From positions 1 through 49,995 of the IMG/VR virus record IMGVR_UViG_2721755643_000006: a stretch of 49,995 nucleotides of DNA. The stretch is one strand, 5' to 3'. Position numbers and translations under genes: made by a program. The first letter of the stretch is position 1. Each line of letters opens with the position of its first letter. Below the pieces are notes generated by a model. That model made no database searches. It worked only from the letters and a program-made list of their open reading frames with translations, and was not told the origin of the DNA. The stretch comes from a virus. Taxonomy: Duplodnaviria > Heunggongvirae > Uroviricota > Caudoviricetes. Positions 19,170 through 45,097 of the stretch are shown piece after piece.

Positions 19170-20751
19170 GTGATGTTGTCTCCTCTTCCGGCCTGCGACT
19201 CTCCGCTATCTGCTGCTGATACGCCTGGGCTATCCACACCGGACGTGAGAGTCCGGCTTTTTCGCGCTCTGCGGATTCCCTGACCTGCTGGCGGAAAATG
19301 TCCTGATAATCTTCGCCCATCAGTGCCAGTTCTTTCTCATACGTGCTCAGTCCGGCCTCAATGCGCATCACCGATTCCTGGACCTCCTTGAGCCCGTCAA
19401 TGGCCATTCTTCCGGAGCCAATCCACTCTGCCCGTGACCAGGCTGAACGCGCCTGGTAAAAATCAAAACGCGCCCGTGGCGGACGAATAATCCCCCGAAG
19501 AAGCGCCTCTTCCAGCCAGCAGGAAAACATCTGCGTGGCCAGCCGGGCCGCAATAAATTTTCGCCGCCCCATAAAATAGCGCCACGACTCATTGGCGGAG
19601 GCGCGGGCACTTGAGTAACTGACCTTCGAGTAATCACGGGACAACTGTTCGTAGGAAACGCCAAGACCGGCTGCAATATACCGCAGCAGCGCCTGTTCAA
19701 GCGCCGAAAATCCATTGTCTGAATCCTGCGCTGTCTGCAGGTTCAGCGCATCGCCAGGAAAAAGGTGCGGAATTTTAACACCGCCCAGCGTCACGTTATT
19801 CGTGTCATACCAGCGGGTGAACTTCTCCAGAATATTAATAAGCGGATTATCCTGCTGACCTTGCGGTGCCCCCGCGATATATTCAAATGCCTTTTCGGTA
19901 TCAAGTTCACTTTCGATTGTGGCTGCATACATCGCCTTCACAATGGCCGACTGAAGCTGCGTGGCCTGCAGGGAGTCCAGCATCTTCATCCGCTCCATTA
20001 CGCTGTAAAACTGATTAGCCCCACGGGTCTGCCCGTCCTCCACCGGCTCAAAAATATGCAGCATGGCCGGACGCCCGGTGGGAAGCTCACGCGGGATCCG
20101 CTCCCAGCGTCCGGCACCAGAGAACGGAAAATCATCCTCACAGATATGGTACGCAATCGCCCGCCCATACCGATCGACCTCAACCCCGGCCCGCAGAAAG
20201 TGGTTCCCCATACCGTGTCCTGGCGTGTCCACCCGTTTCGGACTCACGGCTTTAAAACGCGTACGGAATAACTGCGTGGTTTCCGTATCCCAGACCGGCT
20301 GCACAAAGATTTCGCCGTTAAAGGCATGCACGCCCACCCCTTCACGGATAAATTCCGTAAACGTGCGTTTCCCTTCCACGTCGATCTCGCCAAACATTCC
20401 TTCTGCGTATTCCGACCAGGCTGCTTCCACCTCCCCGACAAAACTTTTTGCCGTGGTCTCCCGCATCCCCAGCCAACGCCAGTTCAGACGGTAGCTGATA
20501 AGAAACATGTGCCCGACGATATGATCCTTATGCAGGGCCACCGCATTAGCCGCGATACCGTTATTGCGCACCAGATCATCTGCCCGGGCATTCCCCAGAC
20601 GCAATGCAGGCAACAGGGCCGCATCGGCACTCTGCGCCGGTGGTAACCACTCTGCCATTTGCCCGCCAAATCCTGCGCCGCCTCCGTTGTAGCTGAGACT
20701 CTCACGAAGCGGAACGCCGTTCACATCAATCAGGACAGGCGTTCGTTTCAT
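19159..20751 (-). CDS. B: Portal protein B
   Basis: 530 aa colinear with lambda gpB (DDLVRNNG...NGEIFVQ..WDT...LFRT.F..VSPKR...FEPVEDGQTRGAN.FYSVME.MKMLD.LQ.TQLQSAIVKAMYAATIESELDT). Confidence 0.95.
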   Translation of the reverse strand: MKRTPVLIDVNGVPLRESLSYNGGGAGFGGQMAEWLPPAQSADAALLPALRLGNARADDLVRNNGIAANAVALHKDHIVGHMFLISYRLNWRWLGMRETTAKSFVGEVEAAWSEYAEGMFGEIDVEGKRTFTEFIREGVGVHAFNGEIFVQPVWDTETTQLFRTRFKAVSPKRVDTPGHGMGNHFLRAGVEVDRYGRAIAYHICEDDFPFSGAGRWERIPRELPTGRPAMLHIFEPVEDGQTRGANQFYSVMERMKMLDSLQATQLQSAIVKAMYAATIESELDTEKAFEYIAGAPQGQQDNPLINILEKFTRWYDTNNVTLGGVKIPHLFPGDALNLQTAQDSDNGFSALEQALLRYIAAGLGVSYEQLSRDYSKVSYSSARASANESWRYFMGRRKFIAARLATQMFSCWLEEALLRGIIRPPRARFDFYQARSAWSRAEWIGSGRMAIDGLKEVQESVMRIEAGLSTYEKELALMGEDYQDIFRQQVRESAEREKAGLSRPVWIAQAYQQQIAESRRPEEETTSRET

Positions 20752-20951
20752 AACCTCACTCCCAGCGGTCGGCGGCGTCGGGTCGTACCCAGAACCGACT
20801 CCGCATCGTTGATCGCACGGTTAAGCTCATTCAGGGACGCTGCCGTATATTCGATCCTGCGACCGTCTTTCTGTACCGACACAACCCGTTTACCGGTTAA
20901 TAAATCAAGGCGCGCCTGACGCAGCGCCTGCAGTTCAGCGACTGTAACCAT
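20748..20951 (-). CDS. W: Head-tail joining protein W
   Basis: 67 aa, position between A and B, lambda gpW-like. Confidence 0.85.
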   Translation of the reverse strand: MVTVAELQALRQARLDLLTGKRVVSVQKDGRRIEYTAASLNELNRAINDAESVLGTTRRRRPLGVRL

Positions 20952-22863
20952 TCACTCCTCCGGACAGCTTCGCTGCCAGTTCTTCAAGGGTCGGTTGTGC
21001 AGTTGCATCCTTGCGGGATGCCGCCAGCACAGCCAGATCAAGTTGCCAGCGTTGCACGGACACACGTAATGCCGCATAGGCATACACCAGGCAGTCCAGC
21101 GCTTCGTTACGCCGCTTTTTGTTATCCCACAACAGACGCATCTTTCCTTTTTCCCACTTTTCCACCAGTTCCTCCGCCACCAGTTGTTGTGCCTCTGTCT
21201 GCGAAAAAATCTCCGGATTATCAGGAAAGCGGATGGCATACGATGTGGCCTCATTCACAGGGGTGGGATCGGCCTTCATTCGGGCATAGAGAATTTCTTT
21301 TGCGGTATCCGTCCCCACCTCACACAGATACACACCCCGCTGATTACGGGTTTTCGGCATGGTGATAACTGGCTTGCCATAGACAGATGCGCCTTTCACC
21401 GGCAGCACCCGAAAAACACCGTGTTTTTTCGATCTCTGATAAACGATTTCGCCATCGATCCCCCCGATGTCCCAGCAGATACGGGAAATGGTCATTTCAG
21501 TTCCGTCTGCATGGCGGTATTTTTTGTTGATCGCCGCATCCACACGTAACAGCGTCTCTTCCTCATCAGGTCGTCCCATAATGATGATTTTATCCACCAG
21601 AAAGGCTTCCTCTCCCGGAGCCCATCCCCAGACATACATCTCAAAACGGTTTCGCTGCGAGTCAATACCAGCAGTCAGGTAAACCACCCGGACAGGCACC
21701 GCCGCCGGGTAATGCACAACCTTATCCATCAGCACCTGGTGATCGAGTTTTTCGCCCACGGCCTCTTCCCAGGTCTCCCCCAGTGTGGTGTTTACAAACG
21801 TCTTGACGCCGTTAGGATCCTTCAGTGCATCCAGCCAGTCATAAACAATCTGCGCCCAGGTAGTGAACGGGCTGTACGCCGTCCAGATGTGGAAAGTGAC
21901 AGAACGTGGCGGGGGTATCTCCTCATCACCGACGCTGTAAAATGTCAGGCCGTCACGCGTCCACATCCCGGTATTGTCACAAATCCAGCGCCCCCCGGTC
22001 TGATCAAGTTCAGACTGACGGATCACGCAACCATTATGTTCACACAGGTAATACACCGTTTCCGGTTTGCCTTTCTCCCATTTCAGGCCAAACGGCGTCG
22101 CATCATCGCCAAATTTCAGATACTGCTCCTCCCCGCAATGAGGGCAAGGAACATAAAACCGCATGAAATGTGCAGATTCATTCGCGGCTTTTTCAATCTG
22201 GCAGGAGCCTTTGATTTTTGGCGTTGAACCGCGTATGGATTTTGGCCATACCGAACCTTCAATACGTTTATCGCCAAGCAGTGTTGGCGAACCTTCTTTT
22301 TCCACATCCGGTTCAAACGAGGAGAGTTCGTCATAGCAGACCACATCGACAGATTTTTCACGGTAGTTTTTGGCAGCAGCACCACCCAAACACCAGAACC
22401 CCACACCAGAGGAAAAACGCTTCAGTGTGAGCGTATTATCCCGGTGTTTCCGGCCCAGCCAGGGAGAAAGTTTTTTCAGGCAAGGAACATCACGAATTGT
22501 TGCTTCCACGTGAGACTTCATAAAATCTTCAGCAGCTGAGTCCGTCGGCTGAAAAAGAAGAGTGTTGCGGGATTTGTGCTCAATAAAATACCCGATCACA
22601 CCAAGCACCATTTTTGTATAACCAACACGGGCAGATTTAATCAGGTTAACTGTACGAATCTCGTCATTGCCCATGCAGTTCATGATGGCGACCTGAAACG
22701 GCAGCGTTTTCCATTCCCCCTCACCGTATGACGATTCTTTAGGCAGGTAATAATTTTGATCGGCCCATTCTACAGCCGTCACCGGCAATACCCTGACCAG
22801 TGGCTGCAGTGCGATAGTGACTGCCACCATCATATTACTCAGTTGTTGTTCTGATATATTCAT
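20935..22863 (-). CDS. A: Terminase large subunit A
   Basis: From MNISEQQ the product is colinear with lambda gpA (TAVEWAD.NYYLPKES...FMRF.V.CPHCGEEQYLKFGD...FVNTTLGETWE...ICWDIGGID...EALDCLVYAYAALR). Confidence 0.95.
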   Translation of the reverse strand: MNISEQQLSNMMVAVTIALQPLVRVLPVTAVEWADQNYYLPKESSYGEGEWKTLPFQVAIMNCMGNDEIRTVNLIKSARVGYTKMVLGVIGYFIEHKSRNTLLFQPTDSAAEDFMKSHVEATIRDVPCLKKLSPWLGRKHRDNTLTLKRFSSGVGFWCLGGAAAKNYREKSVDVVCYDELSSFEPDVEKEGSPTLLGDKRIEGSVWPKSIRGSTPKIKGSCQIEKAANESAHFMRFYVPCPHCGEEQYLKFGDDATPFGLKWEKGKPETVYYLCEHNGCVIRQSELDQTGGRWICDNTGMWTRDGLTFYSVGDEEIPPPRSVTFHIWTAYSPFTTWAQIVYDWLDALKDPNGVKTFVNTTLGETWEEAVGEKLDHQVLMDKVVHYPAAVPVRVVYLTAGIDSQRNRFEMYVWGWAPGEEAFLVDKIIIMGRPDEEETLLRVDAAINKKYRHADGTEMTISRICWDIGGIDGEIVYQRSKKHGVFRVLPVKGASVYGKPVITMPKTRNQRGVYLCEVGTDTAKEILYARMKADPTPVNEATSYAIRFPDNPEIFSQTEAQQLVAEELVEKWEKGKMRLLWDNKKRRNEALDCLVYAYAALRVSVQRWQLDLAVLAASRKDATAQPTLEELAAKLSGGVNGYSR

Positions 22864-23344
22864 CGAGTAAATCCGGTAATTTATCCCCCGCACGCGCGCA
22901 CTGATTCGCTCCCTTAGCAATAAGGATTTTCAGATGATCAATATGACGCGGCGTTAAATCCGGGAACTGTCGTTGCATGGACAAAGGAATGGAGTCAAGC
23001 GTACTGGATAAAGCCATCGCCAGCTTACTAAGGGCAAAAATACAAAATCCGCTATCAATAAGATTTCCTTTTGACACCTGATTTTTTAACTGCTGTGCGA
23101 CAGCCTGTTCTGCGGTCAGTTCCCATCTCGCAATGAGTAGTTTCTCTTCATAATCCTCTTCCGGATCACCATCAGGCACATCGTTTTTACTTCTTCTCAG
23201 ATACGATATGTAAAAATCACGCCAGGCATCCAGATCCAGTTGTCCTCGCTTGTTCGAAACCGGGGCACCCGGCAGTTTCTGTAATCTGCGAAGCTGGCGA
23301 TCGGTCAGACTCAAATGCCTGGCAACTTCAGTCTGAGTAGCCAC
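22835..23344 (-). CDS. Nu1: Terminase small subunit Nu1
   Basis: N-terminal winged-HTH (EVARHLSLTDRQLRRL) and C-terminal similarity to lambda Nu1 (GFCIFALSKLA...LDSIPLSMQRQFPDL..RHIDHLK); GTG start with GAGGTG 5 nt upstream; overlaps A start. Confidence 0.8.
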   Translation of the reverse strand: MATQTEVARHLSLTDRQLRRLQKLPGAPVSNKRGQLDLDAWRDFYISYLRRSKNDVPDGDPEEDYEEKLLIARWELTAEQAVAQQLKNQVSKGNLIDSGFCIFALSKLAMALSSTLDSIPLSMQRQFPDLTPRHIDHLKILIAKGANQCARAGDKLPDLLDEYIRTTTE

Positions 23345-23414
23345 TGTTCACCTCGCCAAAAAATCTCCCCTCATGCGTTTTAAACATGCATCTTGCGAAC
23401 AACTTTATGAAACG

Positions 23415-23575
23415 CGGCATATATGTCCGGTTTGAGTGTTCAATTTTTGCGCATGTCCGGTTCGCAGAAAGCACATTTCTATATTTTTCAAATGGTTAAC
23501 CTTCAGAGAAACCGGACATGGTTTCCGAAAAATTTTCATAAATAGTGAAATTCTGCGCCGCTCCCGCCCCGTGGC
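23415..23575 (-). other. cos region: cosN-like end plus cosB-like segment with three CCGGACAT-type repeats
   Basis: Minus-strand sequence GGGGCGGGAGCGG-CGCAGAATTT-CACTATTTATGAAAATTTTT closely parallels the lambda left end (GGGCGGCGACCT-CGCGGGTTTT-CGCTATTTATGAAAATTTTCC), ~215 bp upstream of Nu1; repeats containing CCGGACAT at ~23426, ~23455, ~23511. Confidence 0.55.
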
Positions 23576-23705
23576 AGGCCACCCCACCGGGAGGACCCGT
23601 CAGCCTGACAGCCATGACGAACGTCTGATACAGCGCCCTGCATGAATGACATCGGGATAATCCAGAAAGGAATAGCATCGTACCCACAAGAATCAGTGTA
23701 AGTGT

Positions 23706-23882
23706 CCTGTTTCTTCCACCCCCGCACAGGACTGGCGAGCATGAGGGACAAACCCGCGAACCATAAACGCGGTAAAAACCCGGTGTGCATCGTTTTTGAT
23801 TATTCCCGCACACTCGCGCAGAAGGAGTTCCCCGTCGGGCTACGGTCATGGTTAATGCGGGAATACAGCGACGATACAGCGC
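23706..23882. repeat. 177-bp direct repeat, copy 1 (between cos and the IS)
   Basis: Near-identical to 26408-26584 by direct alignment, only a handful of mismatches. Confidence 0.85.
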
Positions 23883-24069
23883 ATGATGTGTCAGGCCTGA
23901 ATACCTTTATCCGTTAAAAGGGATATCAGTTAAGTTATCCCGTGTAGGGTATAAGCCATTATCAAAGCCACTCAGTAGCGAATGGCTTTTGTAATGGGCT
24001 ATTTAATTAGGCTGTGTCCCTTAATCATCTGAGCTATAGTAACTGTCTGTTTACACAACATATTGAACT

Positions 24070-24519
24070 ATGGCTCGCTACGACCTTCCCGATGAGGCAT
24101 GGACCATCATCAAGCCCCTGTTACCTCCTGAACCCGCCACACCACGGGCCGGACGCCCATGGGCTGAGCACCGTAAAATCATCAATGGCATGTTCTGGGT
24201 GTTATGTTCCGGTGCACCATGGCGCGATTTACCCGAACGATATGGGTCATGGAAAACTGTTTATAACCGCTTTAACCGATGGTCAAAGTCAGGCGTGATT
24301 AATATTATTTTCAACAGGTTGCTTTCGCTACTTGATGCAAACGGCTTTATTGACTGGTCTGCCACCGCGCTGGATGGCAGTAATATCCGGGCGCTGAAAT
24401 GTGCCGCCGGTGCTCAAAAAAACATCCCGATATCGACGGAGATAATGGGCTGGGTCGCTCTCGCGGCGGTTTTGGCACCAAAATCCATCTGGCAACAGAC
24501 GGAAGTGGCCTCCCGTTAA
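24070..24519 (+). CDS. IS transposase OrfA (DUF4096-type N-terminal domain)
   Basis: MARYDLPDEAWTIIKPLLPP...RPWAEHRKIINGMFWVLCSGAPWRDLPERYGSWKTVYNRFNRWSKSGV is the characteristic N-terminal domain of IS5-family transposases. Confidence 0.8.
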   Translation: MARYDLPDEAWTIIKPLLPPEPATPRAGRPWAEHRKIINGMFWVLCSGAPWRDLPERYGSWKTVYNRFNRWSKSGVINIIFNRLLSLLDANGFIDWSATALDGSNIRALKCAAGAQKNIPISTEIMGWVALAAVLAPKSIWQQTEVASR

Positions 24520-24914
24520 ATATCGTGCTAAGCCCCGGACAAGCTCATGAAAGCCAGTTCGCGCAACGACTTCTGGACGGGATTGGCGTTCAGCGTCAGA
24601 ACGGCAGCATGAAACGCCGTGGACATGCGGTACTGGCTGATAAAGCGTATTCAGGGCGCGCATTGCGCAACGAGCTGAAAAATAACGGTATAAAGGCAGT
24701 AATCCCCCGAAAGTCAAATGAGAAAATGGCATCGGATGGACGTGCACAGCTTGATCGTGATGCGTACCGCAATCGTAATGTCGTTGAACGGTGCTTTGGG
24801 CGGCTGAAAGAATATCGCCGCATCGCCACGCGTTACGACAAAACGGCGAGAAATTACCTGGCGATGGTGAAACTGGGCTGCATCCGACTCTTTTATCAAC
24901 GCTTACGTAATTAA
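24399..24914 (+). CDS. IS transposase OrfB (DDE domain), expressed by -1 frameshift fusion
   Basis: DDE-type C-terminal domain ORF overlapping orfA; fusion predicted at the A7 slippery run. Confidence 0.75.
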   Translation: MCRRCSKKHPDIDGDNGLGRSRGGFGTKIHLATDGSGLPLNIVLSPGQAHESQFAQRLLDGIGVQRQNGSMKRRGHAVLADKAYSGRALRNELKNNGIKAVIPRKSNEKMASDGRAQLDRDAYRNRNVVERCFGRLKEYRRIATRYDKTARNYLAMVKLGCIRLFYQRLRN

Positions 24915-25366
24915 GGGACACAGCCTAGTGATGCTGCGTATTCGATTAGATATAACTTAGGTGCCAGCCAGATTTTTAACCATGTCATATTGGCTACTAT
25001 AGAAATAATAAAACTTAACCATAGAATAAAAACTGCTACTAATGGTAAGACAAAAGCACTTAACCTACCGTCACTTTCCCAAATCATAGTCGGTTTGTAT
25101 TTAGGCTGTCCATTATCACATGAGCGTCCGTCATTATCGAACTTACCAATTTCAACTTTTTTGCACTGTTTCTTCATAAACCAAATAACCAGCGGGATTG
25201 TTGAAATGGCTATTAATGTTTTAATCAGGCTATCAACTATATTCCATACCAGCAACTGATGAACAACATCCGGAATCTGAGCCTGACTGAATGCAATGGC
25301 GGAATCAATTCCATCGCTGGCATTGTTCAATAAATCAACAAGAATTTTCTTTGCTTCTTCTTGCAT
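24911..25366 (-). CDS. Small membrane protein with two predicted TM helices; 3' end altered by the IS insertion
   Basis: 151-aa ORF with hydrophobic stretches LIKTLIAISTIPLVIWFM and LSAFVLPLVAVFILWLSFIISIVANM; AGGA 8 nt upstream of ATG; last codons and stop lie inside the IS right inverted repeat; AT-rich. Confidence 0.6.
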   Translation of the reverse strand: MQEEAKKILVDLLNNASDGIDSAIAFSQAQIPDVVHQLLVWNIVDSLIKTLIAISTIPLVIWFMKKQCKKVEIGKFDNDGRSCDNGQPKYKPTMIWESDGRLSAFVLPLVAVFILWLSFIISIVANMTWLKIWLAPKLYLIEYAASLGCVP

Positions 25367-25489
25367 GTATATATCCTGTAAGTTGTAAGCCTGTTCGAAA
25401 AAATAAACAACTACGAGAGACAGAAAAAAATATCTCAGGCTCTCTTTCTATAAGCTTTTAGTTGAGGATGTTCTGCAAAACAAAACTGG

Positions 25490-26350
25490 TTAGTTATGTA
25501 ACTGCTTCTGGAATACAACAGCCGACGTGCTACAACGTAAAATTCGTTTGATTGTGGCAGTTGAGGAAACAGACTTGCATTTCTCAATATCATCAATGAT
25601 GACCACATCCGGTACAGGCATGATGCGGGTATGCAATGTTTTTGCACTAATAACATCACAGCCATTCAGTGGACGAATATCTGCATCTTCAGGCACTACC
25701 AGAAGCACACGTTTCTCCGTTGCAGAAAAGCCAGCAGCAAGAGTTCGCGACAATAAAGTCATTCCACTACGTGGCTTCATACAAATTTCAGAAATATGAT
25801 TTTTTTCGTCCAAATGATGCTGGCCATCATTTTTATCATCACTCAACAACTCTGCTGTTAATACAATCCCTGCTGTCTCAGATTTCCAGGAAATGCTGAT
25901 ATCCTGATCATCTGCATCAACATCATATTTCATCGAGTAAGGACTAAAGCAACGTCCAACGAACGCATCGTTTACCAGTACACGCCCACCCTGTCTGACC
26001 TGAAAGTCAACGCGCCCTGAAAGCTGATTTACTGTTACAAGCAATGCCTTTTTTCTTTTTGTTTTATTACTCATTGCCACAAACTGTTCAGCCATCTCTC
26101 TTGTCACACTACCAGAAACTCTTTCTTGAATTTTCACAGTAAATTTTCTGGATGTAGTAGCATCGACATTAAAAAATCTGGATGTCATTAGGCAGTTATT
26201 AACAATTGGCATCAGCTCACTTACAATTGTAACAAATTCCCGGTAAAGCTCATTTTGCTTTTCAGCACACAGTTTTCCGCAATCGGCCAGCTTAAGCTCA
26301 AGAGCAATTAATCGTTCCATTATTGAATTAATTTTTTGCAACTCTTTCAT
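25490..26350 (-). CDS. Hypothetical 286-aa soluble protein, first gene of cos-proximal cassette
   Basis: ATG at 26348-26350 preceded by AGGAGG with 5-nt spacing; N-terminal coiled-coil-like region; no family recognised; the longer ORF-track version (to 26650) reads through the 177-bp repeat and is an artefact. Confidence 0.65.
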   Translation of the reverse strand: MKELQKINSIMERLIALELKLADCGKLCAEKQNELYREFVTIVSELMPIVNNCLMTSRFFNVDATTSRKFTVKIQERVSGSVTREMAEQFVAMSNKTKRKKALLVTVNQLSGRVDFQVRQGGRVLVNDAFVGRCFSPYSMKYDVDADDQDISISWKSETAGIVLTAELLSDDKNDGQHHLDEKNHISEICMKPRSGMTLLSRTLAAGFSATEKRVLLVVPEDADIRPLNGCDVISAKTLHTRIMPVPDVVIIDDIEKCKSVSSTATIKRILRCSTSAVVFQKQLHN

Positions 26351-26407
26351 CAAAACCTCCTGACAAAGATACCGTGCGACCACGGTCGCACGCTCCTGAA
26401 TACATGC

Positions 26408-26584
26408 CCTGTTTCTTCCACCCTCGCACAGGACTAGCGAGCATGAGGGACAAACCCGCGAATCATTAGCGCGGTAAAAACCCGGTGTGCATCGTTTTTG
26501 ATTATTCCCGCACACTCGCGCAGAAGGAGTTCCCCGTCGGGCTACGGTCATAGTTAATGCGGAAATACGGCGACGATGCAGCGC
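26408..26584. repeat. 177-bp direct repeat, copy 2 (upstream of the cassette)
   Basis: Near-identical to 23706-23882; flanked by two copies of CGACCACG[G/A]TCGCAC (26380-26394, 26599-26613). Confidence 0.85.
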
Positions 26585-26631
26585 GGAATTTAGCGAGCGA
26601 CCACGATCGCACACGAGAAACAAAGAGATTT

Positions 26632-26943
26632 TTATACTGCAGAGGAACAAGCTGGCGGGTAATTCAGCGTAGTGAATACCGGCATCTCCATCTTGTATGC
26701 GTAATGATACTCAGCAGTTGCTCCAGCAGACGCTTTCCAGCCAGGAAGCATCAAAATAGCATCCGCACAACGAAGCATTGCAAAGCAAATATCCATGTAT
26801 TCACGTTGTGTCAGACCATTAGGCAAAGTGGCTGGATTCAAGACAGAGTGACCATGTCGTGACAAACGATCTGCCTCTTTATTAAAGGCGTCACGATTAA
26901 AGTTCTCATATCCCGTCATTGGCCCGGCAATATAAATTTTCAT
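26632..26943 (-). CDS. DUF4406-like protein (nucleoside 2-deoxyribosyltransferase-like fold)
   Basis: MKIYIAGPMTGYENFNRDAF...ADAILMLPGW resembles the phage-associated DUF4406 family; immediately downstream of Rz. Confidence 0.65.
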   Translation of the reverse strand: MKIYIAGPMTGYENFNRDAFNKEADRLSRHGHSVLNPATLPNGLTQREYMDICFAMLRCADAILMLPGWKASAGATAEYHYAYKMEMPVFTTLNYPPACSSAV

Positions 26944-26984
26944 TCACTATCCAACAAATTGAGTTCGTTTTTGATACAGAGGGA

Positions 26985-27452
26985 TTAATTCAGGCATTGC
27001 GTATTGATGTATTCCTGAAGCGTTCTCAGTGCTGTTTGGTCGCGGATAATTCCGTCCCGGATACCGAGAACGTTTCGTCCAGCAACTGAAGAGAGTTCGA
27101 CGGTGGCATCATTGCCCATGCCGGAGGCGCTGGAGGTTTTGGCTGAGGCTGGCACAGGGCATTTTCCTTTGACGAGCACCCGACCACCATTATCAAGCTT
27201 GCGCCGAAGAGCATCATTTTCAGCTTTCGCATCAGCTAACTCCTTCGTGTATTTAGCATCGAGTGCATCAACAGAACGCTGGCGCTGCTGCATGTCAGTA
27301 ATGGTTGCGTTCGCCAGCTTCAGTTCTCTTGCGTTTTTGTCGCGCTGCTCTTTGTAGGTAATGGCGTTATCACGGTAATGATTAACAGCCCATGACAGGC
27401 AGACGATGATGCAGATAACCAGAGCGGAGATAATCGCGGTGACTCTGCTCAT
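26985..27452 (-). CDS. Rz: Spanin inner-membrane subunit Rz
   Basis: [53 protein letters not shown]...[19 protein letters not shown] matches lambda Rz. Confidence 0.92.
27026..27232 (-). CDS. Rz1: Spanin outer-membrane lipoprotein Rz1, embedded in Rz in the +1 frame
   Basis: [21 protein letters not shown] (lipobox) followed by Pro-rich [16 protein letters not shown], as in lambda Rz1. Confidence 0.75.
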
Positions 27453-27982
27453 TGATCTATCCCCCAACAGGCTAATGCGCTTTCCTGGTCACGACGAATA
27501 ACCTGTCCATAGCAGTTATTTGAACGTATGCGGCAATCGCGCCCAACATCTTTTATCCACCAGCGAATCGCCTCGCATGCGCCCTTACGATCACCGGCAT
27601 TCAGCCGCTTATAAAACGTCGACGGGAAACACTTACCGGGGCCAATGTTATAGGGGCAAAATGACGCTATACCCGCTTTTTGTGGTTCGGTCAGTGGTAC
27701 TTTAATATTGCGCTCCACCCATGCCAGCGCCTTATCACGTTCAATGGCGTTAACCTGGTCGCATTTTTCCTTCGACAGTTTCATACCGGGAAAAACGGGT
27801 TTACCATCCACCATCGTGGCACCCCGACAGATGGTCCAGATGCCGGAACCATCGCGGTATGCCGTAGTGTGGTTACCTTCTTTTTCATCCAGAAACTGGT
27901 CGAGAATATCAGGCGCAGGCGCACCGATAGCAATCAGTGCCAGAACGGCAGCCGACAGGCCATATCTGATTTTTACGTTCAT
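27449..27982 (-). CDS. R: Endolysin R, T4-lysozyme-like with N-terminal SAR/signal-anchor segment (phage 21 R-type)
   Basis: Hydrophobic N-terminus then lysozyme-like region ([20 protein letters not shown]); stop overlaps Rz start. Confidence 0.88.
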
Positions 27983-28303
27983 GGATATTTATCAGGATTT
28001 ATCGGCTTCAAATCCCCGGATATGTTAAATCTTACCTCGCCAGTGATGGGCACTGGCGGGAGGAGGATGTCAATCTGATAAACACAGAGGTGACTACGGA
28101 TTACACAAATCTACCAAAACAAACTTTTGCTGATTTAATCGCACTCAGGCAAGCAGTCGTAGCTCTAATCAACTTGTTGCCGGAGAAGGAAAAGGAATTA
28201 GTTAAAGCGCTTCTTAACAGAACTGCCGCCGATTTTTCATCATATCCACTGACAGATGACCTTGCGGACCTTCCTGAATTAATTGCAGCGTCCGCCATTA
28301 AGC

Positions 28304-28834
28304 TTACTGAAGAGATTTACCCTCCTCAAAAATCTTCACAAAATTCCTGCGAGTAACTTCAATGCAATAATCGTAAAACGCCGCAAACTGCTCATCGCGG
28401 CGTTTTTTTTCATCTTCAGAAGGAATCAGCACCGACAATTTTTTCTCCAGTTTTTCAATGGGCGATTCAATATCATCTTTTTCTGACCGCAATGCCGTCG
28501 GTGGCGTCTTCAGAGAACCAGTAATTCTTCCCGGTAGCTTTCCTTTGTAGGTTATCCACACATTCTGCGCCTCTAAAATTATGGGGCGCTTTTCCGGCGA
28601 CTGCTCATCCCCTTCACATAACCCGGCAGCAACATCCAGGAATACCTGTCTGATTCTCATTCTGGCCGCTGCCTCATAAAACTCCAGCGCGGCACCTTCA
28701 ACACGGTCCAGCGAGATGTCCAGGTCAAAAATTTCACCGTCAAAGCGTTTTTTGTCCCGTAACGCTAAAGTTACCGCAACTTTATTCTCAAAATTGCGGA
28801 TCCCTTTCACAATCAGTTCATAGTTTTGTGTCAT
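28304..28834 (-). CDS. Conserved lysis-cassette protein between holin and endolysin (YdfR-like), function unknown
   Basis: 176-aa ORF; N-terminus MTQNYELIVKGIRNFENKVAVTLALRDKKRFDGEIFDLDISLDRVEGAALEFYEAAAR resembles E. coli Qin YdfR as far as memory allows; position mirrors essQ-ydfR-rrrQ. Confidence 0.55.
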   Translation of the reverse strand: MTQNYELIVKGIRNFENKVAVTLALRDKKRFDGEIFDLDISLDRVEGAALEFYEAAARMRIRQVFLDVAAGLCEGDEQSPEKRPIILEAQNVWITYKGKLPGRITGSLKTPPTALRSEKDDIESPIEKLEKKLSVLIPSEDEKKRRDEQFAAFYDYCIEVTRRNFVKIFEEGKSLQ

Positions 28835-28838
28835 TGAA

Positions 28839-29054
28839 TTACTCTCCCCGCGCAGCCTTACGCTTGTCTTCTCTTATTTTGAAATACAGATTCGTCAGAT
28901 AAGTCAGAAGCCCCAGAAGCAGACTTCCCAGCACACCAATCGCAGCCCACTGTGATGGACTGACCTGATCCAACCACTGCAAAAACCAGTAGCCGGCACT
29001 GCCGGCGGAGGTGCCGTAGGCAATGCCTGTTGATATTTTTTCCATCTGATACAT
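28839..29054 (-). CDS. S: Pinholin, phage 21 S-type, with dual-start motif
   Basis: 71 aa; [62 protein letters not shown] matches S21; Met1 and Met4 (MYQMEK) as in S71/S68. Confidence 0.88.
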
Positions 29055-29091
29055 ATCCCGCCCCCCGACAGACCTGTGCTATCGGAAAGAA

Positions 29092-29125
29092 AAAAGGCCA
29101 TCAGCAAAACTCTGATGGCCTGAAT
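29092..29125 (-). terminator. Rho-independent terminator just upstream of the lysis genes
   Basis: Minus-strand hairpin GGCCATCAG-AGTTTTG-CTGATGGCC followed by TTTTTTCTTTCC, ~40 bp upstream of the holin start. Confidence 0.6.
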
Positions 29126-29734
29126 CACCTTTACCAATATTGTATGAAAAAACACGCACGACTAATTGACAATAATTTTCATTTCCATTAAAAAAGATCG
29201 CGTAGCATTCTTAATTCATGAGGAACTTTACCCGCCAGCAATCTGAGTAGCGAAAGCTGTTCATCCCCAATGTTTTTGCTGGCGGGTCCTTTTTTCTACG
29301 GTCCTCCTCCCCGGAGGGGGGCATTTCATTATTTTTCTAATCGTTACTGGTGAGAAGGCGGAAGAAAAAGCCAGTTCTTCGCCCCTAAATAACAGCATGA
29401 TTCCAGTCCATGCAAAATCTGATTTCCAGCTCACACATACCGAGCGCTGTACAAAAAACCGCCAGCCAAGGCAGTTAAGAGTGTGTTCCCGGGGTTTGCT
29501 TAGAATATTTTGTAAGTTGTCCGAAGAGATATTTACAACACCAGAATGATGAATCATCAGTCCCCTGCCAGAGGTTCACTACGTAACCTGACCGACAATG
29601 CACCATTCTGGTGCTGAAAAAAGAGCACTGGAACTGCAACAAAACAACATCACAGAACAGGAGATGGTAAGGAGTCAGACATTCCCACACAATATTGTGT
29701 CAGTGCAAATAACAACCTTCGTCTCAAATCTCGC

Positions 29735-29809
<75 letters not shown>

Positions 29810-29812
29810 ATA

Positions 29813-29888
<76 letters not shown>

Positions 29889-29890
29889 GC

Positions 29891-29967
29891 TGGCCCACCA
29901 CCGAGGACTCGAACCTCGCACCGTCAACTTAGAAGGTTGATGCTCTATCCGGATGAGCTAGTGGTGG
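29891..29967 (-). tRNA. tRNA-Arg (anticodon TCT)
   Basis: 77-nt cloverleaf: anticodon stem TCAAC/GTTGA, loop CTTCTAA, T-arm CGAGG-TTCGAGT-CCTCG, CCA end. Confidence 0.75.
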
Positions 29968-29968
29968 T

Positions 29969-30044
29969 TGGTGGCCCTTGCTGGACTTGAACCAGCGACC
30001 TGGCGATTATGAGTCGCTCGCTCTCACCACTGAGCTAAAGGGCC
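29969..30044 (-). tRNA. tRNA with CAT anticodon, ileX/ileZ-like (Ile2 or Met)
   Basis: GGCCCTTTAGCTCAGTGGT.AGAGC...GACTCATAATCGC...GGTCGCTGGTTCAAGTCCAGCA.GGGCCACCA is nearly identical to E. coli tRNA-Ile2 as recalled. Confidence 0.8.
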
Positions 30045-30084
30045 GATAACATAATGATAACGTTACAGAATAAATTCAGCAATA

Positions 30085-31143
30085 TCACTCTCTCTTTCTG
30101 ATTGAATTCTGTACATCTCTTGCGGTCTGCTCAAAACGTTCAGCCTCCAGCTCGACACCAATTGCACGACGCCCCAGCGCCATCGCTGCTTTGACTGTCG
30201 AACCGGACCCCATGAAGAAATCTGCAACCAGGTCACCCGGACGACTGCTGGCGGTAATCATTTGCCGCAACATATCTGCCGGTTTTTCACAGGGATGTTT
30301 GCCCGGATAATACTGCACAGGCTTGTGCGTCCAGACATCCGTATAAGGAACGGCTGCCGATACGGAAAAATAACGCCGCAGGGATTTGTACTCTTCCAGC
30401 AGGCTGGCATACTGCCGGTTCAGCTCACTGTATGTGCTGACCAGTTGGTGATGTGGCTTTTCCAGTTCACCCCGCTGATGTTTCTCTTCTGCCACCCGGG
30501 CAAACAGCACCTGAAGTTTTCTGTAATCATCCTCGTTCGGTAACTGCCACTGGCTGGCACTGAACCAGTGCGACACCATGTTTTTCTTTCCTGAGACATC
30601 AGCAATCTGTTTTGCCGTTATCCCCAGAGCCGCACGCGCATCACGAAAGTAAGAAATCAGCGGAGCCATCACATGCTGTTTCAGTGCCCTGCCCTTCGCC
30701 TCATAGCCATCATCTTTTGGACGATACGGCCCCTGATAATGTTCCGCGAACAGAATGCGCTCTGTGGCGGGGAAATACGCCCGCAGGCTTTCCTTGTTGC
30801 ACCCGTTCCAGCGCCCGGACGGCTTCGCCCAGATAATGTGGTTCAGCACATTAAAGTGCTCACGCATCATGATTTCGATATCAGATGCCAGGCGATGACC
30901 ACAGAACAGGTAGAGACTTCCGGCAGGCTTCAGTACCCGCCAGAATTGCGCCAGACACTGATCCAGCCATTTCAGGTAATCCTCGTCGCCCTTCCACTGG
31001 TTATCCCAGCCCTCGGGCTTCACTTTAAAGTATGGCGGGTCTGTGACTATCAGATCGACAGAGTTTTCCGGTAAGGTCTGGATAAATTCCAGGCAATCAG
31101 CGTTGATTAACTCACAACTGGATATTTTTACAGTATTAGTCAT
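30085..31143 (-). CDS. Orphan DNA methyltransferase (N6-adenine/N4-cytosine, DPPY motif)
   Basis: N-terminal motif IV VTDPPYF followed later by SAM-binding FFMGSGST; no adjacent restriction gene. Confidence 0.85.
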   Translation of the reverse strand: MTNTVKISSCELINADCLEFIQTLPENSVDLIVTDPPYFKVKPEGWDNQWKGDEDYLKWLDQCLAQFWRVLKPAGSLYLFCGHRLASDIEIMMREHFNVLNHIIWAKPSGRWNGCNKESLRAYFPATERILFAEHYQGPYRPKDDGYEAKGRALKQHVMAPLISYFRDARAALGITAKQIADVSGKKNMVSHWFSASQWQLPNEDDYRKLQVLFARVAEEKHQRGELEKPHHQLVSTYSELNRQYASLLEEYKSLRRYFSVSAAVPYTDVWTHKPVQYYPGKHPCEKPADMLRQMITASSRPGDLVADFFMGSGSTVKAAMALGRRAIGVELEAERFEQTARDVQNSIRKRE

Positions 31144-32276: not shown

Positions 32277-32352
32277 AGGATGATCCTTTTTCTATGTGAA
32301 TCATCACCAACCTGAGACCAATCAGGGTGGTGAGCTGGCGGCGTTGGTCTTA

Positions 32353-32384
32353 CCGGGAAAAAGGAACCGGCGCGCCGGAGCGCC
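32353..32384 (-). terminator. Candidate tR'-like terminator downstream of Q
   Basis: Minus-strand GC hairpin (GGCGC-loop-GCGCC within CCGGCGCGCCGG) followed by TTCCTTTTTCC. Confidence 0.3.
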
Positions 32385-32510
32385 ACCGCCAACCCACCAT
32401 AATGCGAGTGTGGCTATGCAAACGACAATAAAAAAGACGCGAGCGCGCCTATTGCCGCCTTTTTCATCCGGGAGACCAATCCCGACGCCAGATTTTGCTG
32501 ACGCGTGAGG

Positions 32511-34805: not shown

Positions 34806-34961
34806 TTACTCCTCAGGTTCGTAAGCTGTGAAGACAGCGACCTCCGTCTGGCCGGTTCGGATTCGTACCTCGCAGAGGTCTTCCCTCGTTACCAGTGCCG
34901 TCACTATGACGGTTAAACAGATGACGATCAGGGCGACTAACATCGCCTTTTGCTGCTTCAT
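34806..34961 (-). CDS. hok: Hok/Gef-family type I toxin
   Basis: MKQQKAMLVALIVICLTVIVTALVTREDLCEVRIRTGQTEVAVFTAYEPEE is nearly identical to E. coli HokD/RelF. Confidence 0.88.
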   Translation of the reverse strand: MKQQKAMLVALIVICLTVIVTALVTREDLCEVRIRTGQTEVAVFTAYEPEE

Positions 34962-35296
34962 AGCCTGCTTCTCCTTGCCTTCCGGCACGTAAGAGGCTAA
35001 CCTACATTTGTGAGACATAGATTGGGCCTCAGATTAATGTTAAGCGTCCTGCAAGACGCGTAATGTTAACTGGGGCTTTTCTCTGTCTGCCTTACAGTGG
35101 CATGCCCGAGGCAGACAGCCTCAAGCACCCGCAGCCATTCTACTTAACCTTTTAGCTGTTTCCAACATTTTATCTTTGCACCAAAATTCGCTCGCAACCT
35201 ATCGATAAATCTAGAATTTTTAAATTAATAGATTGCAATAACATGCGATGTTCTCTTTAACCAAAATCAGGTCACACAAAAACCATTCTACAATTT

Positions 35297-44616: not shown

Positions 44617-45097
44617 AAAGTGAATTTTGTGATGCGGTGAATGCGGCTCAGCGCACGCGGAACAGTTAAAAAGCGATTAGTTCCCACGTATCGGGTGGTT
44701 ATGGGTATCCCTGTATCCGGCGTTAATTGTTAACTGGTTAACGTCACCTGGAGGCACCAGGCACCGCATCAACAAAGTTCACTTCGGTGATGAAAGGAAA
44801 GAGAAAATGTTGAATGTAGCTATTGAAAACCAGAACGGGTGGAATTATAGTGCACCTGCACCTCATAAAACGGGTGCCGGGATTGGCCTCCTGTTAATCA
44901 CATTGGTGCCTGAACACGCGCCAAAAGCGTGTTTTTTGTTGCCTGCATTTCATCATTCAATGGCAGCTCAGGCGGGAGCTTCTCACGAAGCGCCGGGTTC
45001 CGATGTGACCGGTAAGGCCAATCCCGTCTGGGCTACCACCAATCGGATTGGCCTCTGCGGTGGTGGCAGTACTGCTTTCACATCGGAGGATGCCGTT

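Follow-up and report, generated by a model that had tools for sequence, protein, structure and literature searches.

The window analyzed here, a 49,995-nucleotide (nt) stretch of DNA covering positions 1 to 49,995 of the IMG/VR virus record IMGVR_UViG_2721755643_000006, carries a lambdoid prophage locus in which a segment of 180 nt, termed U, occurs twice as a direct repeat around a two-gene cassette and an insertion sequence (IS). Few conserved non-coding segments of Escherichia coli prophages are as widespread as U, and its most likely role is that of a folded RNA domain within the phage late transcript. In the explanation that best fits the locus, and which is considered probable as a whole, U would be a discrete module of ~180 nt (~210 nt with a 5′ extension) at the lysis-packaging boundary of the lambda-like late operon, and the cassette would be gained and lost by recombination between its two copies. 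The duplication itself is ordinary phage mosaicism. Follow-up interest lies in the repeated unit, which is widespread, sharply bounded, and apparently structured, and less in the recombination scar.

The two copies lie at 23703-23882 (copy 1, U1) and 26405-26584 (copy 2, U2), with a spacing of 2702. A repeat search recovered them as a single direct-repeat family (n=1), 94% identical and gapless with 10-11 mismatches; the first-pass annotation of the window, which had read them by eye as near-identical, had placed their left edges 3 nt short, at 23706 and 26408. Because the same search found nothing else comparable in the region, a chance origin of the similarity is not a concern. E. coli RMDEC364 and VL46 match the window at 100% identity. 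The RMDEC364 genome (NZ_CM177020.1) matches U in five places, of which the one at 1719589-1719768 belongs to a different prophage and agrees with copy 1 at 100% identity. The prophages resident in this strain may therefore exchange sequence by gene conversion.

A local tandem duplication within this prophage, with the cassette and IS inserted between the copies later, is highly improbable. The short repeat CCTGAATAC, present on both sides of U, would fit an old array of extension plus U, but the copies differ by 6% while their flanks are about 100% identical to those of relatives. Furthermore, both copies are more closely matched by sequences elsewhere (for U1, the mEp460 and 2B8 types at 97-98% identity, in addition to its twin in the same genome), and the same cassette is found with U2 on at least four different backbones.

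Distribution and position of U

U was matched in 436 phage records, which include lambda-like, N15-like, and Shiga toxin (Stx1/Stx2) phages as well as a few Salmonella and Shigella phages. It is also present in 3853 of 5426 complete E. coli genomes (71%), at up to six places per genome, with several copies in one genome corresponding to several prophages. Of the possibilities raised by the first-pass annotation, that of a conserved lambdoid segment that was duplicated is thus the one that the distribution supports. In lambda, U lies at about 46.87-47.05 kb, between bor and lambdap78, and its first ~70 nt have diverged. The copy in the DLP12 prophage of E. coli K-12 (579010-579191) lies between borD and ybcV, where RNA gene annotation is absent. 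In VT2-Sakai, U is found directly between Rz and the terminase genes, and in Stx phage 1717 it precedes an HNH/terS module of the HK97 type.

A GTDB-wide pattern scan for more diverse copies returned only Escherichia, plus contamination with lambda or control DNA. Representatives of Cohnella, Pedobacter, Flavobacterium, Polaromonas, Aeromicrobium, Arcanobacterium, Kitasatospora, and others carry the lambda version of U on contigs of ~3.5 kb, some of ~48 kb (L136, L138, L140, L142, L151, L153, L157, L159, L164, and others). In these unrelated assemblies, lambda or sequencing-control DNA is the most likely source.

The position of U was surveyed in a sample of 357 loci, with 363 occurrences in total, among which 168 sequences are distinct. 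In 319 of the 363, U is preceded by lysis genes that share its orientation, and in 219 it is followed by packaging genes that do so. Lysis genes were found downstream of U once, and lysis or packaging genes in the opposite orientation were found in none of the 363. In 64 occurrences, bor or iss adjoins U in the opposite orientation, and most copies have no neighboring bor. U is linked to the end of the lysis module and not to cos, the cohesive-end site, since 1.5 kb separates it from cos in lambda, and since packaging contexts of the HK97 and 933W types have it as well. The first-pass description of the unit as cos-proximal is therefore correct for copy 1 of the window, whose start lies ~134 nt from cosN (located by similarity to lambda and downstream of the copy in the late-transcript sense), but not for U in general.

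Conservation immediately outside U drops to 0.4-0.57, which gives the module sharp edges, and the 500-nt flanks fall into ~30 unrelated classes per side that combine almost freely. By these sequence comparisons, U marks a boundary where lysis and packaging modules have repeatedly been exchanged for others. They also suggest that U serves as a patch of portable homology, since it is conserved at the nucleotide level in otherwise unrelated phage backbones; crossovers within it would reassort modules, and cargo could enter.

Sharp edges would also suit a small non-autonomous mobile element that inserted twice, with short flanking repeats or pal, a palindrome described below, as its targets or ends. 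In 22 of 356 scored occurrences, U is bracketed by a short imperfect direct repeat, (C)TGACAGRCYTGAATAC; pal copies bracket it in 18, and the number of copies per genome points the same way. Such an element, which the first-pass annotation had offered as one reading, is nevertheless very unlikely. All 363 occurrences have the late-operon orientation, all but one keep the gene order with U between lysis and packaging genes, and multiple copies mean multiple prophages. In addition, no terminal inverted repeats were reported by the repeat search, no transposase or integrase travels with U, and the strand-specific conservation of G·U pairs described below indicates selection on an RNA.

One IMG/VR contig (L082 893-7245) carries two U copies 6 kb apart, in the order Rz-U, NanS-like esterase, DUF826, holin, lysozyme, Rz, Rha, and U. 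This was considered as a second kind of bracketed cargo and rejected, as the contig holds two tandem late regions, each with Rz followed by U. The arrangement points to adjacent or rearranged prophages.

Coding test and predicted RNA fold

U is non-coding. Whichever frame is taken, it is open in at most 21 of 50 U representatives, the indels are mostly of 1-2 nt, and Pfam and NCBIfam gave no match. Some GenBank records do annotate small proteins that overlap U (mEp460_059, orf48 of VT2-Sakai, and several features named 'hypothetical protein'), and copy 1 contains an open reading frame (ORF) of 71 codons on the plus strand. However, in-frame stops interrupt the same frame in copy 2, and the annotated ORFs lie on different strands and in different frames, so that a protein encoded by U has a negligible probability.

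The case for a folded RNA is built on an alignment (A1) of 50 U sequences, which are pairwise <97% identical except for the two window copies. The consensus predicted by RNAalifold contains 30 pairs. A long bipartite stem, P1 (columns 6-12/91-97) and P2 (columns 18-28/73-83), encloses a highly conserved loop; two mini-hairpins are also predicted, and a 3′ hairpin (columns 157-162/180-185) displays an invariant GGAAGAAAC loop. Between the long stem with the mini-hairpins and the 3′ hairpin lies another hairpin, whose sequence is replaced from variant to variant. U would thus fold in three parts: the long P1/P2 stem with a conserved CU-rich internal loop, the variable hairpin, and the hairpin with the invariant loop. 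The helices form stable hairpins without a run of uridines.

In the late-transcript sense, 98.3% of the cells of this consensus are paired, eight pairs show changes on both sides, and 14 pairs alternate between Watson-Crick and G·U. None of 500 shuffles reached any of the five observed measures, and controls with slid partners pair in only 33-61% of cells. Strand asymmetry is the strongest point for a folded RNA. The late sense has 173 G·U cells against 10 A·C cells, while the opposite sense is 87.3% paired with 10 G·U cells, and the alifold energy is -33.5 kcal/mol in the late sense compared with -10.1 in the opposite one. Because C/T and G/A polymorphism is balanced in the unpaired columns, the asymmetry does not stem from mutational bias. 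U therefore combines the general features of structured RNAs, namely conserved pairing, compensatory changes, and strand-specific G·U changes, and comparative folding suggests that it is apparently a folded RNA in the sense of the late transcript. This prediction gives substance to the earlier suggestion of a small regulatory module.

Several observations weigh against this interpretation. Lone U sequences fold no better than shuffles on either strand (z = -0.25, -0.02), and the structural case is therefore a purely comparative one. The covariation comes from ~50 related, recombining sequences, for which the shuffle control provides no probability. Several conserved blocks, which account for much of the conservation, are unpaired and would be compatible with a protein-binding DNA site as well, and HK629 annotates a bor promoter within U on the other strand. 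Literature searches on small RNAs (sRNAs) at borD/ybcV and on lambda late-transcript processing returned nothing relevant, and the element is described neither there nor in Rfam. Searched with either strand of 22500-27500, Rfam 15 yielded 0 matches at E<=1, and the search works elsewhere in the window, where it recovers sok, isrK, C4, and tRNAs. These matches, at the gathering threshold, lie at 34956-35130 (minus), 32323-32504 (minus), 44858-45043 (plus), and 29738-30044 (minus), and comprise a sok antitoxin RNA, two pairs of neighboring isrK and C4 antisense RNAs, one pair on each strand, and four clustered tRNAs that precede the lysis genes.

The annotated promoter and the unpaired blocks raise the question of whether U is conserved for a function at the DNA level, as a leftward promoter or operator of a moron such as bor or as a protein site, with the RNA structure being incidental. 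Lambda-type variants of U (HK629, L130 1567-1593; lambda, ~46.9 kb) carry a near-consensus TGGACA-N15-TACAAT opposite the late strand, upstream of bor, and it is this sequence that is annotated as the bor promoter. The hexamers lie in the 5′ part of U in the RNA sense (U positions ~140-166 on the window plus strand). The 64 occurrences with bor or iss in the opposite orientation would agree with such a function. However, the hexamers are conserved only within the lambda-type variant (the window reads CGGTCA...TACAGC), and most copies have no adjoining bor. In addition, a symmetric DNA site predicts no strand asymmetry, whereas the stems tolerate G·U at 173:10 in the late sense and the loops are unbiased. 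This alternative is rather improbable. Since the other variants do not conserve the hexamers, a moron promoter seems to have evolved inside U in the lambda-type lineage.

The cassette and recombination between the copies

All genes of the locus are on the minus strand (ORF list). In the order of late transcription, the locus reads R, Rz, DUF4406, pal′, U2, pal, the gene for a protein of 286 amino acids (aa), the membrane protein gene, x, U1, cos, and Nu1, where pal, pal′, and x are defined in the following list of features.

20935-22920, minus strand: TerL (ORF list)
22835-23344, minus strand: Nu1 (ORF list)
about 23558-23569, minus strand: cosN cohesive-end region, with ..ACG on one side and GGGCGGGAGCGG.. 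on the other (similarity to the lambda left end, read from the letters)
23703-23882, minus strand: U copy 1, conserved non-coding late-operon module, predicted structured RNA (repeat search, alignment, RNAalifold)
23883-24009, minus strand: x, a segment of 127 nt (comparison with mEp460 and PhiR46_1)
24010-24925, plus strand: ISSfl7, IS5 family, 916 bp, two ORFs with a frameshift (inverted repeats, Pfam DUF4096 and DDE_Tnp_1, RefSeq name, IS-less alleles)
24911-25366, minus strand: cassette gene 2, membrane protein, phrog_3054 (ORF list, profile searches)
25490-26350, minus strand: cassette gene 1, 286 aa, phrog_2571 (ORF list, profile searches)
26374-26391, no strand: pal, the 18-bp palindrome GTGCGACCACGGTCGCAC (motif scan)
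26392-26404, minus strand: linker of 13 nt, GCTCCTGAATACA on the plus strand, holding the short repeat CCTGAATAC (flank comparison)
26405-26584, minus strand: U copy 2, 94% identical to copy 1 (repeat search, alignment)
26595-26612, no strand: pal′, a degenerate copy, GAGCGACCACGATCGCAC, with 16/18 positions matching (motif scan)
26632-26943, minus strand: gene for a DUF4406 (nucleoside 2-deoxyribosyltransferase-like) protein, between Rz and U copy 2 (domain search)

The segment x contains the 5′ extension that U commonly has (23883-23911; plus strand, ATGATGTGTCAGGCCTGAATACCTTTATC), which is found in most upstream contexts and in which CCTGAATAC recurs across U at 23896-23904. It also contains a hairpin at 23964-23989, which has no clear uridine run in the sense of cassette gene 2. 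The single-copy phage mEp460 shares x up to 23997, and the native stop codon of cassette gene 2 lies within x at 23999-24001 (PhiR46_1 coordinates). Copy 2 does not have the usual 5′ extension; pal′ takes its place, 19 nt past the stop of the DUF4406 gene, and is kept in the cassette-free allele.

The direct evidence for recombination between the copies comes from cassette-free alleles, which hold a single chimeric U with U1 sequence on the left and U2 sequence on the right. The RMDEC332 prophage has one U and no cassette, and its flanks are essentially identical to the window on both sides (5/1082 and 6/1196 nt mismatched, nearly all inside U). The six left diagnostic sites of its U agree with U1 and the four right ones with U2, placing the crossover within an 82-nt stretch that is identical between the copies. 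The N15-like phage-plasmid backbone L103 is likewise cassette-free and chimeric when compared with the filled L099, L089, and L127, but switches near the left end of U. RMDEC332 and L103 therefore represent two independent U1 x U2 recombination events, on two backbones. The first-pass reading of the duplication as a product of recombination is supported, and its interpretation is largely right.

Some points weigh against a simple account of the cassette's history. A chimeric U does not distinguish gain from loss, because loop-out deletion and Campbell-type or break-repair insertion lead to the same product. The RMDEC332 prophage is 98% identical to the window overall and about 100% at the locus, so that the locus itself is mosaic, and comparison of whole prophages did not polarize gain versus loss. 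Also, TUM1886 carries the cassette without a second U, and the duplication is therefore not required for carrying it. The IS-less, cassette-bearing VL7S7 is 99.93-99.97% identical around the locus.

The first-pass annotation was right that the repeats bracket an IS and a cassette. The two cassette genes have a guanine-plus-cytosine (GC) content of 34-43%, compared with 46-54% in the surroundings. As accessory genes that lie between conserved phage genes, are absent in close relatives, and deviate in composition, they form a moron in the broad sense. The first gene starts at the ATG at 26350, in agreement with the annotation of PhiR46_1 and RefSeq. The long ORFs reading through the repeats (23496-23849 and 25490-26650) are artefacts of mechanical listing, as the first-pass annotation had recognized. 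Its cassette promoter found no support: the 54 nt between copy 2 and the start codon consist of a hairpin and a ribosome-binding site. A consensus scan of 23300-27100 found no promoter for the cassette and no promoter-like site in or beside either U copy on the minus strand, where counts equal the shuffle expectation.

The same cassette is found on integrated lambdoid prophages and on N15-like phage-plasmids. Together with pal and U2, it occurs in at least four contexts on the lysis side, and once without U2. In the window, PhiR46_1, YDC107_1, and plasmid-borne N15-like phages, the context is DUF4406-Rz, and the first gene is truncated in some. In AR_0085, it is iss/bor-Rz, with a different IS, ISKpn26; in EC12, it is a KilA-N module, and x also follows U2. 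In TUM1886, the context is an HNH pseudogene with a variant of pal. PhiR46_1 is an induced, complete phage with the IS-less allele, and the two-copy arrangement is therefore viable.

In the proposed sequence of events, the low-GC cassette between diverged U copies, which starts with the pal hairpin on the 5′ side and ends with x on the 3′ side, would have been acquired from another lambdoid genome, either by break repair with U as both arms or by a Campbell-type single crossover. It would be removable again through U1 x U2 recombination. In this sequence, the insertion of ISSfl7 at the 3′ end of the membrane-protein gene came later. The IS is bounded by a TA target duplication (24008-24009 and 24926-24927) and replaced the last three codons of the gene, whose product is 149 aa long in intact alleles and 151 aa here, with an IS-derived tail. 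AR_0085 has an independent IS5-family insertion, ISKpn26, in x close to the ISSfl7 site (L008 2883-3863); the short AT-rich stretch of x may be a preferred target of the IS5 family.

The sister prophage in E. coli VL7S7 (L360 3445-15934), the closest relative of the prophage in the window, has its portal gene split by an element of ~11 kb with genes for an integrase, a primase, an Icd-like protein, a major capsid protein, a head decoration protein, and a small terminase. By its gene content, this looks like a capsid-forming satellite, similar to phage-inducible chromosomal islands, lodged in a structural gene of the prophage. Two further IS copies interrupt or adjoin genes of this prophage, IS600 within TerL and IS911 close to the holin.

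pal lies 23 nt upstream of the cassette start codon and, in the RNA sense, 13 nt downstream of U copy 2. The first-pass annotation had noted a 15-bp motif on both sides of copy 2, partly within a perfect 8+2+8 palindrome, and none beside copy 1. The motif, the palindrome (26374-26391), and the bare flanks of copy 1 were all found by a motif scan (up to 3 mismatches), while the coordinates given for the motif were off by 1-3 nt and the sequence is not private to copy 2. The window has four matches against 0.01 expected, and N15-like genomes hold dispersed pal, with 3-4 copies each. Past the 3′ end of U, again at 13 nt in the RNA sense, pal precedes at least five different cargos, and in comparison with relatives without it, it resembles an insertion of ~30 nt into GTATTCAGG^TCTGTCAGA. 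pal is a dispersed intergenic hairpin and is often found next to U. It was flagged as terminator-like in the scan, but its tail is GTATCTTTGT and has no uridine run.

These properties raise the alternative that a crossover at pal, and not at U, made the duplication. A parent with cos-U-x-cassette-pal and a parent with pal-U-pal′-DUF4406-Rz, joined at the 18-bp palindrome, would yield the exact order of the window, with the duplication of U as a by-product. TUM1886, in which the cassette and a variant of pal occur without a second U, agrees with this, as do the position of pal on the cos side of U before different cargos, its several copies in N15-like genomes, and its resemblance to an insertion. 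However, the second parent (pal-U-pal′-DUF4406 without the cassette) was not seen in the sample, cassette-free alleles with pal′ have a plain cos-side flank, and 18 bp is a very short homology. This origin is possible but unlikely. It concerns the origin alone and is compatible with later U1 x U2 recombination.

The 286-aa protein belongs to phrog_2571 and the 149-aa membrane protein to phrog_3054, both families of unknown function in PHROGs, and neither cassette protein had a match in PADLOC 2.0 (anti-phage defense systems), Pfam, or NCBIfam. For the 286-aa protein, an exhaustive HMMER search found Escherichia relatives plus fragments only, no sequence relatives were found in Pfam, PADLOC, NCBIfam, or the PDB, and the AlphaFold model is unusable, with a predicted local distance difference test (pLDDT) score of 47.7. 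Literature searches on the accessions of the cassette proteins returned nothing relevant. phrog_3054 is common in enterobacterial prophages. In P22-like and lambdoid prophages of Salmonella and E. coli, homologues with 56-70% identity (L361-L368) occupy the PL operon by themselves, immediately behind N and adjacent to sieB; variable genes come after them (pentapeptide-repeat protein, HNH, P22 Y8K6-like). Only the lysis-cos location has the 286-aa partner. The PL operon near sieB and N is a classic site for exclusion genes. Because the homologues of the 149-aa protein sit there, a role of the cassette in superinfection exclusion or defense is a reasonable guess by analogy, and nothing more.

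For U itself, the predicted minimum free energy fold of 26360-26625 (minus strand) pairs pal′ with pal in a 17+4-bp stem around the whole of U copy 2 (z = -2.25), and this stem is a possible RNase III-like substrate that would release U from the late transcript. As a guess, the RNA would control processing or stability at the boundary of the lysis and packaging genes or, where pal flanks it, be released by RNase III. A broader reading is put forward tentatively, as one that may well prove wrong. In it, U would be a previously undescribed late-operon RNA of lambdoid phages, lambda and DLP12 included, that controls processing, stability, or expression at the boundary or is excised and acts in trans. 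Through its conservation at the nucleotide level, U would also be a landing pad at which accessory and possible defense cassettes, such as the 286-aa and 149-aa pair, pass among lambdoid phages, N15-like phage-plasmids, and Stx phages. If true, the presence of a functional RNA between Rz and the packaging genes would come as a surprise in a genome as thoroughly studied as that of lambda. The locus also provides a clean natural example of a conserved regulatory patch that would act as portable homology for the gain and loss of cargo, with filled, empty, and IS-hit alleles and two independent crossover points. This makes the lysis-packaging junction a place to look for accessory or anti-phage genes.

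Comparison with known systems

Classic lambdoid morons such as bor and lom carry their own promoter and terminator, and the mosaicism of these phages is framed by the module theory of Susskind and Botstein. The lysis-cos region of lambda carries bor, lambdap78, and lambdap79. The cassette resembles morons in being a low-GC accessory unit at the lysis-cos junction, with mosaic joints at conserved sequence. It differs in that no promoter or terminator was detected for it, and in that the boundary sequence is duplicated around the cargo and conserved in the manner of an RNA.

Repetitive extragenic palindromic (REP) sequences and bacterial interspersed mosaic elements (BIMEs) are intergenic palindromic hairpins with several copies per genome. 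pal is similarly short, GC-rich, intergenic, and multi-copy, and its predicted RNA hairpin could protect or process mRNA. Its sequence is different, however, and it is seen only in these phages, in few copies and with no REP-associated transposase implied. Integron attC sites offer a further parallel, in that a promoterless cassette with an imperfect palindromic boundary lies next to other cargo in one orientation. Unlike attC, pal is an 18-bp near-perfect palindrome, and no integrase was found among the ORFs of 20500-30500 or the annotated neighbors. Since the demonstrated exchanges map inside the 180-nt homology of U, cassette exchange is homologous and not site-specific. A miniature inverted-repeat transposable element was considered for U and rejected: no inverted repeat lies at its ends, the imperfect flanking direct repeats are confined to the 22 scored occurrences noted above, and dispersal at unrelated sites or in both orientations was not seen among the 363 occurrences.

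Several sRNAs are encoded by E. coli prophages, including StxS, 6S/LPR2, PreS/LPR1, HnrS, PasA-D, AgvB, AsxR, STnc100, IsrK, C4, DicF, and IpeX. Like U, they are non-coding and encoded by lambdoid prophages, some within late regions. PreS lies between ea10 and ral, and LPR2/6S/StxS adjoin pR′ (10.1101/2024.10.31.621285). HnrS has 66 nt and an intrinsic terminator, and is 99% restricted to enterohemorrhagic and enteropathogenic E. coli (PMC13502914). The Pas sRNAs are located beside Q, esterase, and holin genes (10.64898/2026.05.13.724894). In contrast, U is ~180 nt long, follows Rz, is found in 71% of E. coli genomes, and has no Rfam match. PreS/LPR1, LPR2, 6S, HnrS, PasA-D, AgvB, AsxR, and STnc100 were each rejected as being U, for their different location or their different size or distribution; HnrS is set apart by its described size, location, and distribution.

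The PeSL 'mobile regulatory cassettes' of T4-type phages are the closest functional counterpart of the U system (Arbiol et al., 2010, PMC2839356; Comeau et al., 2014, PMC4122927). A PeSL consists of a sigma-70 early promoter and a terminator stem-loop, spans ~100 nt, and is present in many copies in hyperplastic regions; its copies lie around ORFans, and genes are shuffled and mini-circles released when the copies recombine (PMC2839356; PMC4122927). In both systems, short conserved non-coding modules surround non-essential ORFans, and recombination between copies inserts, deletes, or replaces genes. For the U pair, this takes the form of copies that flank two ORFan genes, which recombination between them adds or removes. 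U differs from PeSL in having no detectable promoter or terminator and in being a larger, multi-helix predicted RNA domain. Furthermore, it belongs to lambdoid and not T4-type phages, where it is normally present once per phage in one fixed position.

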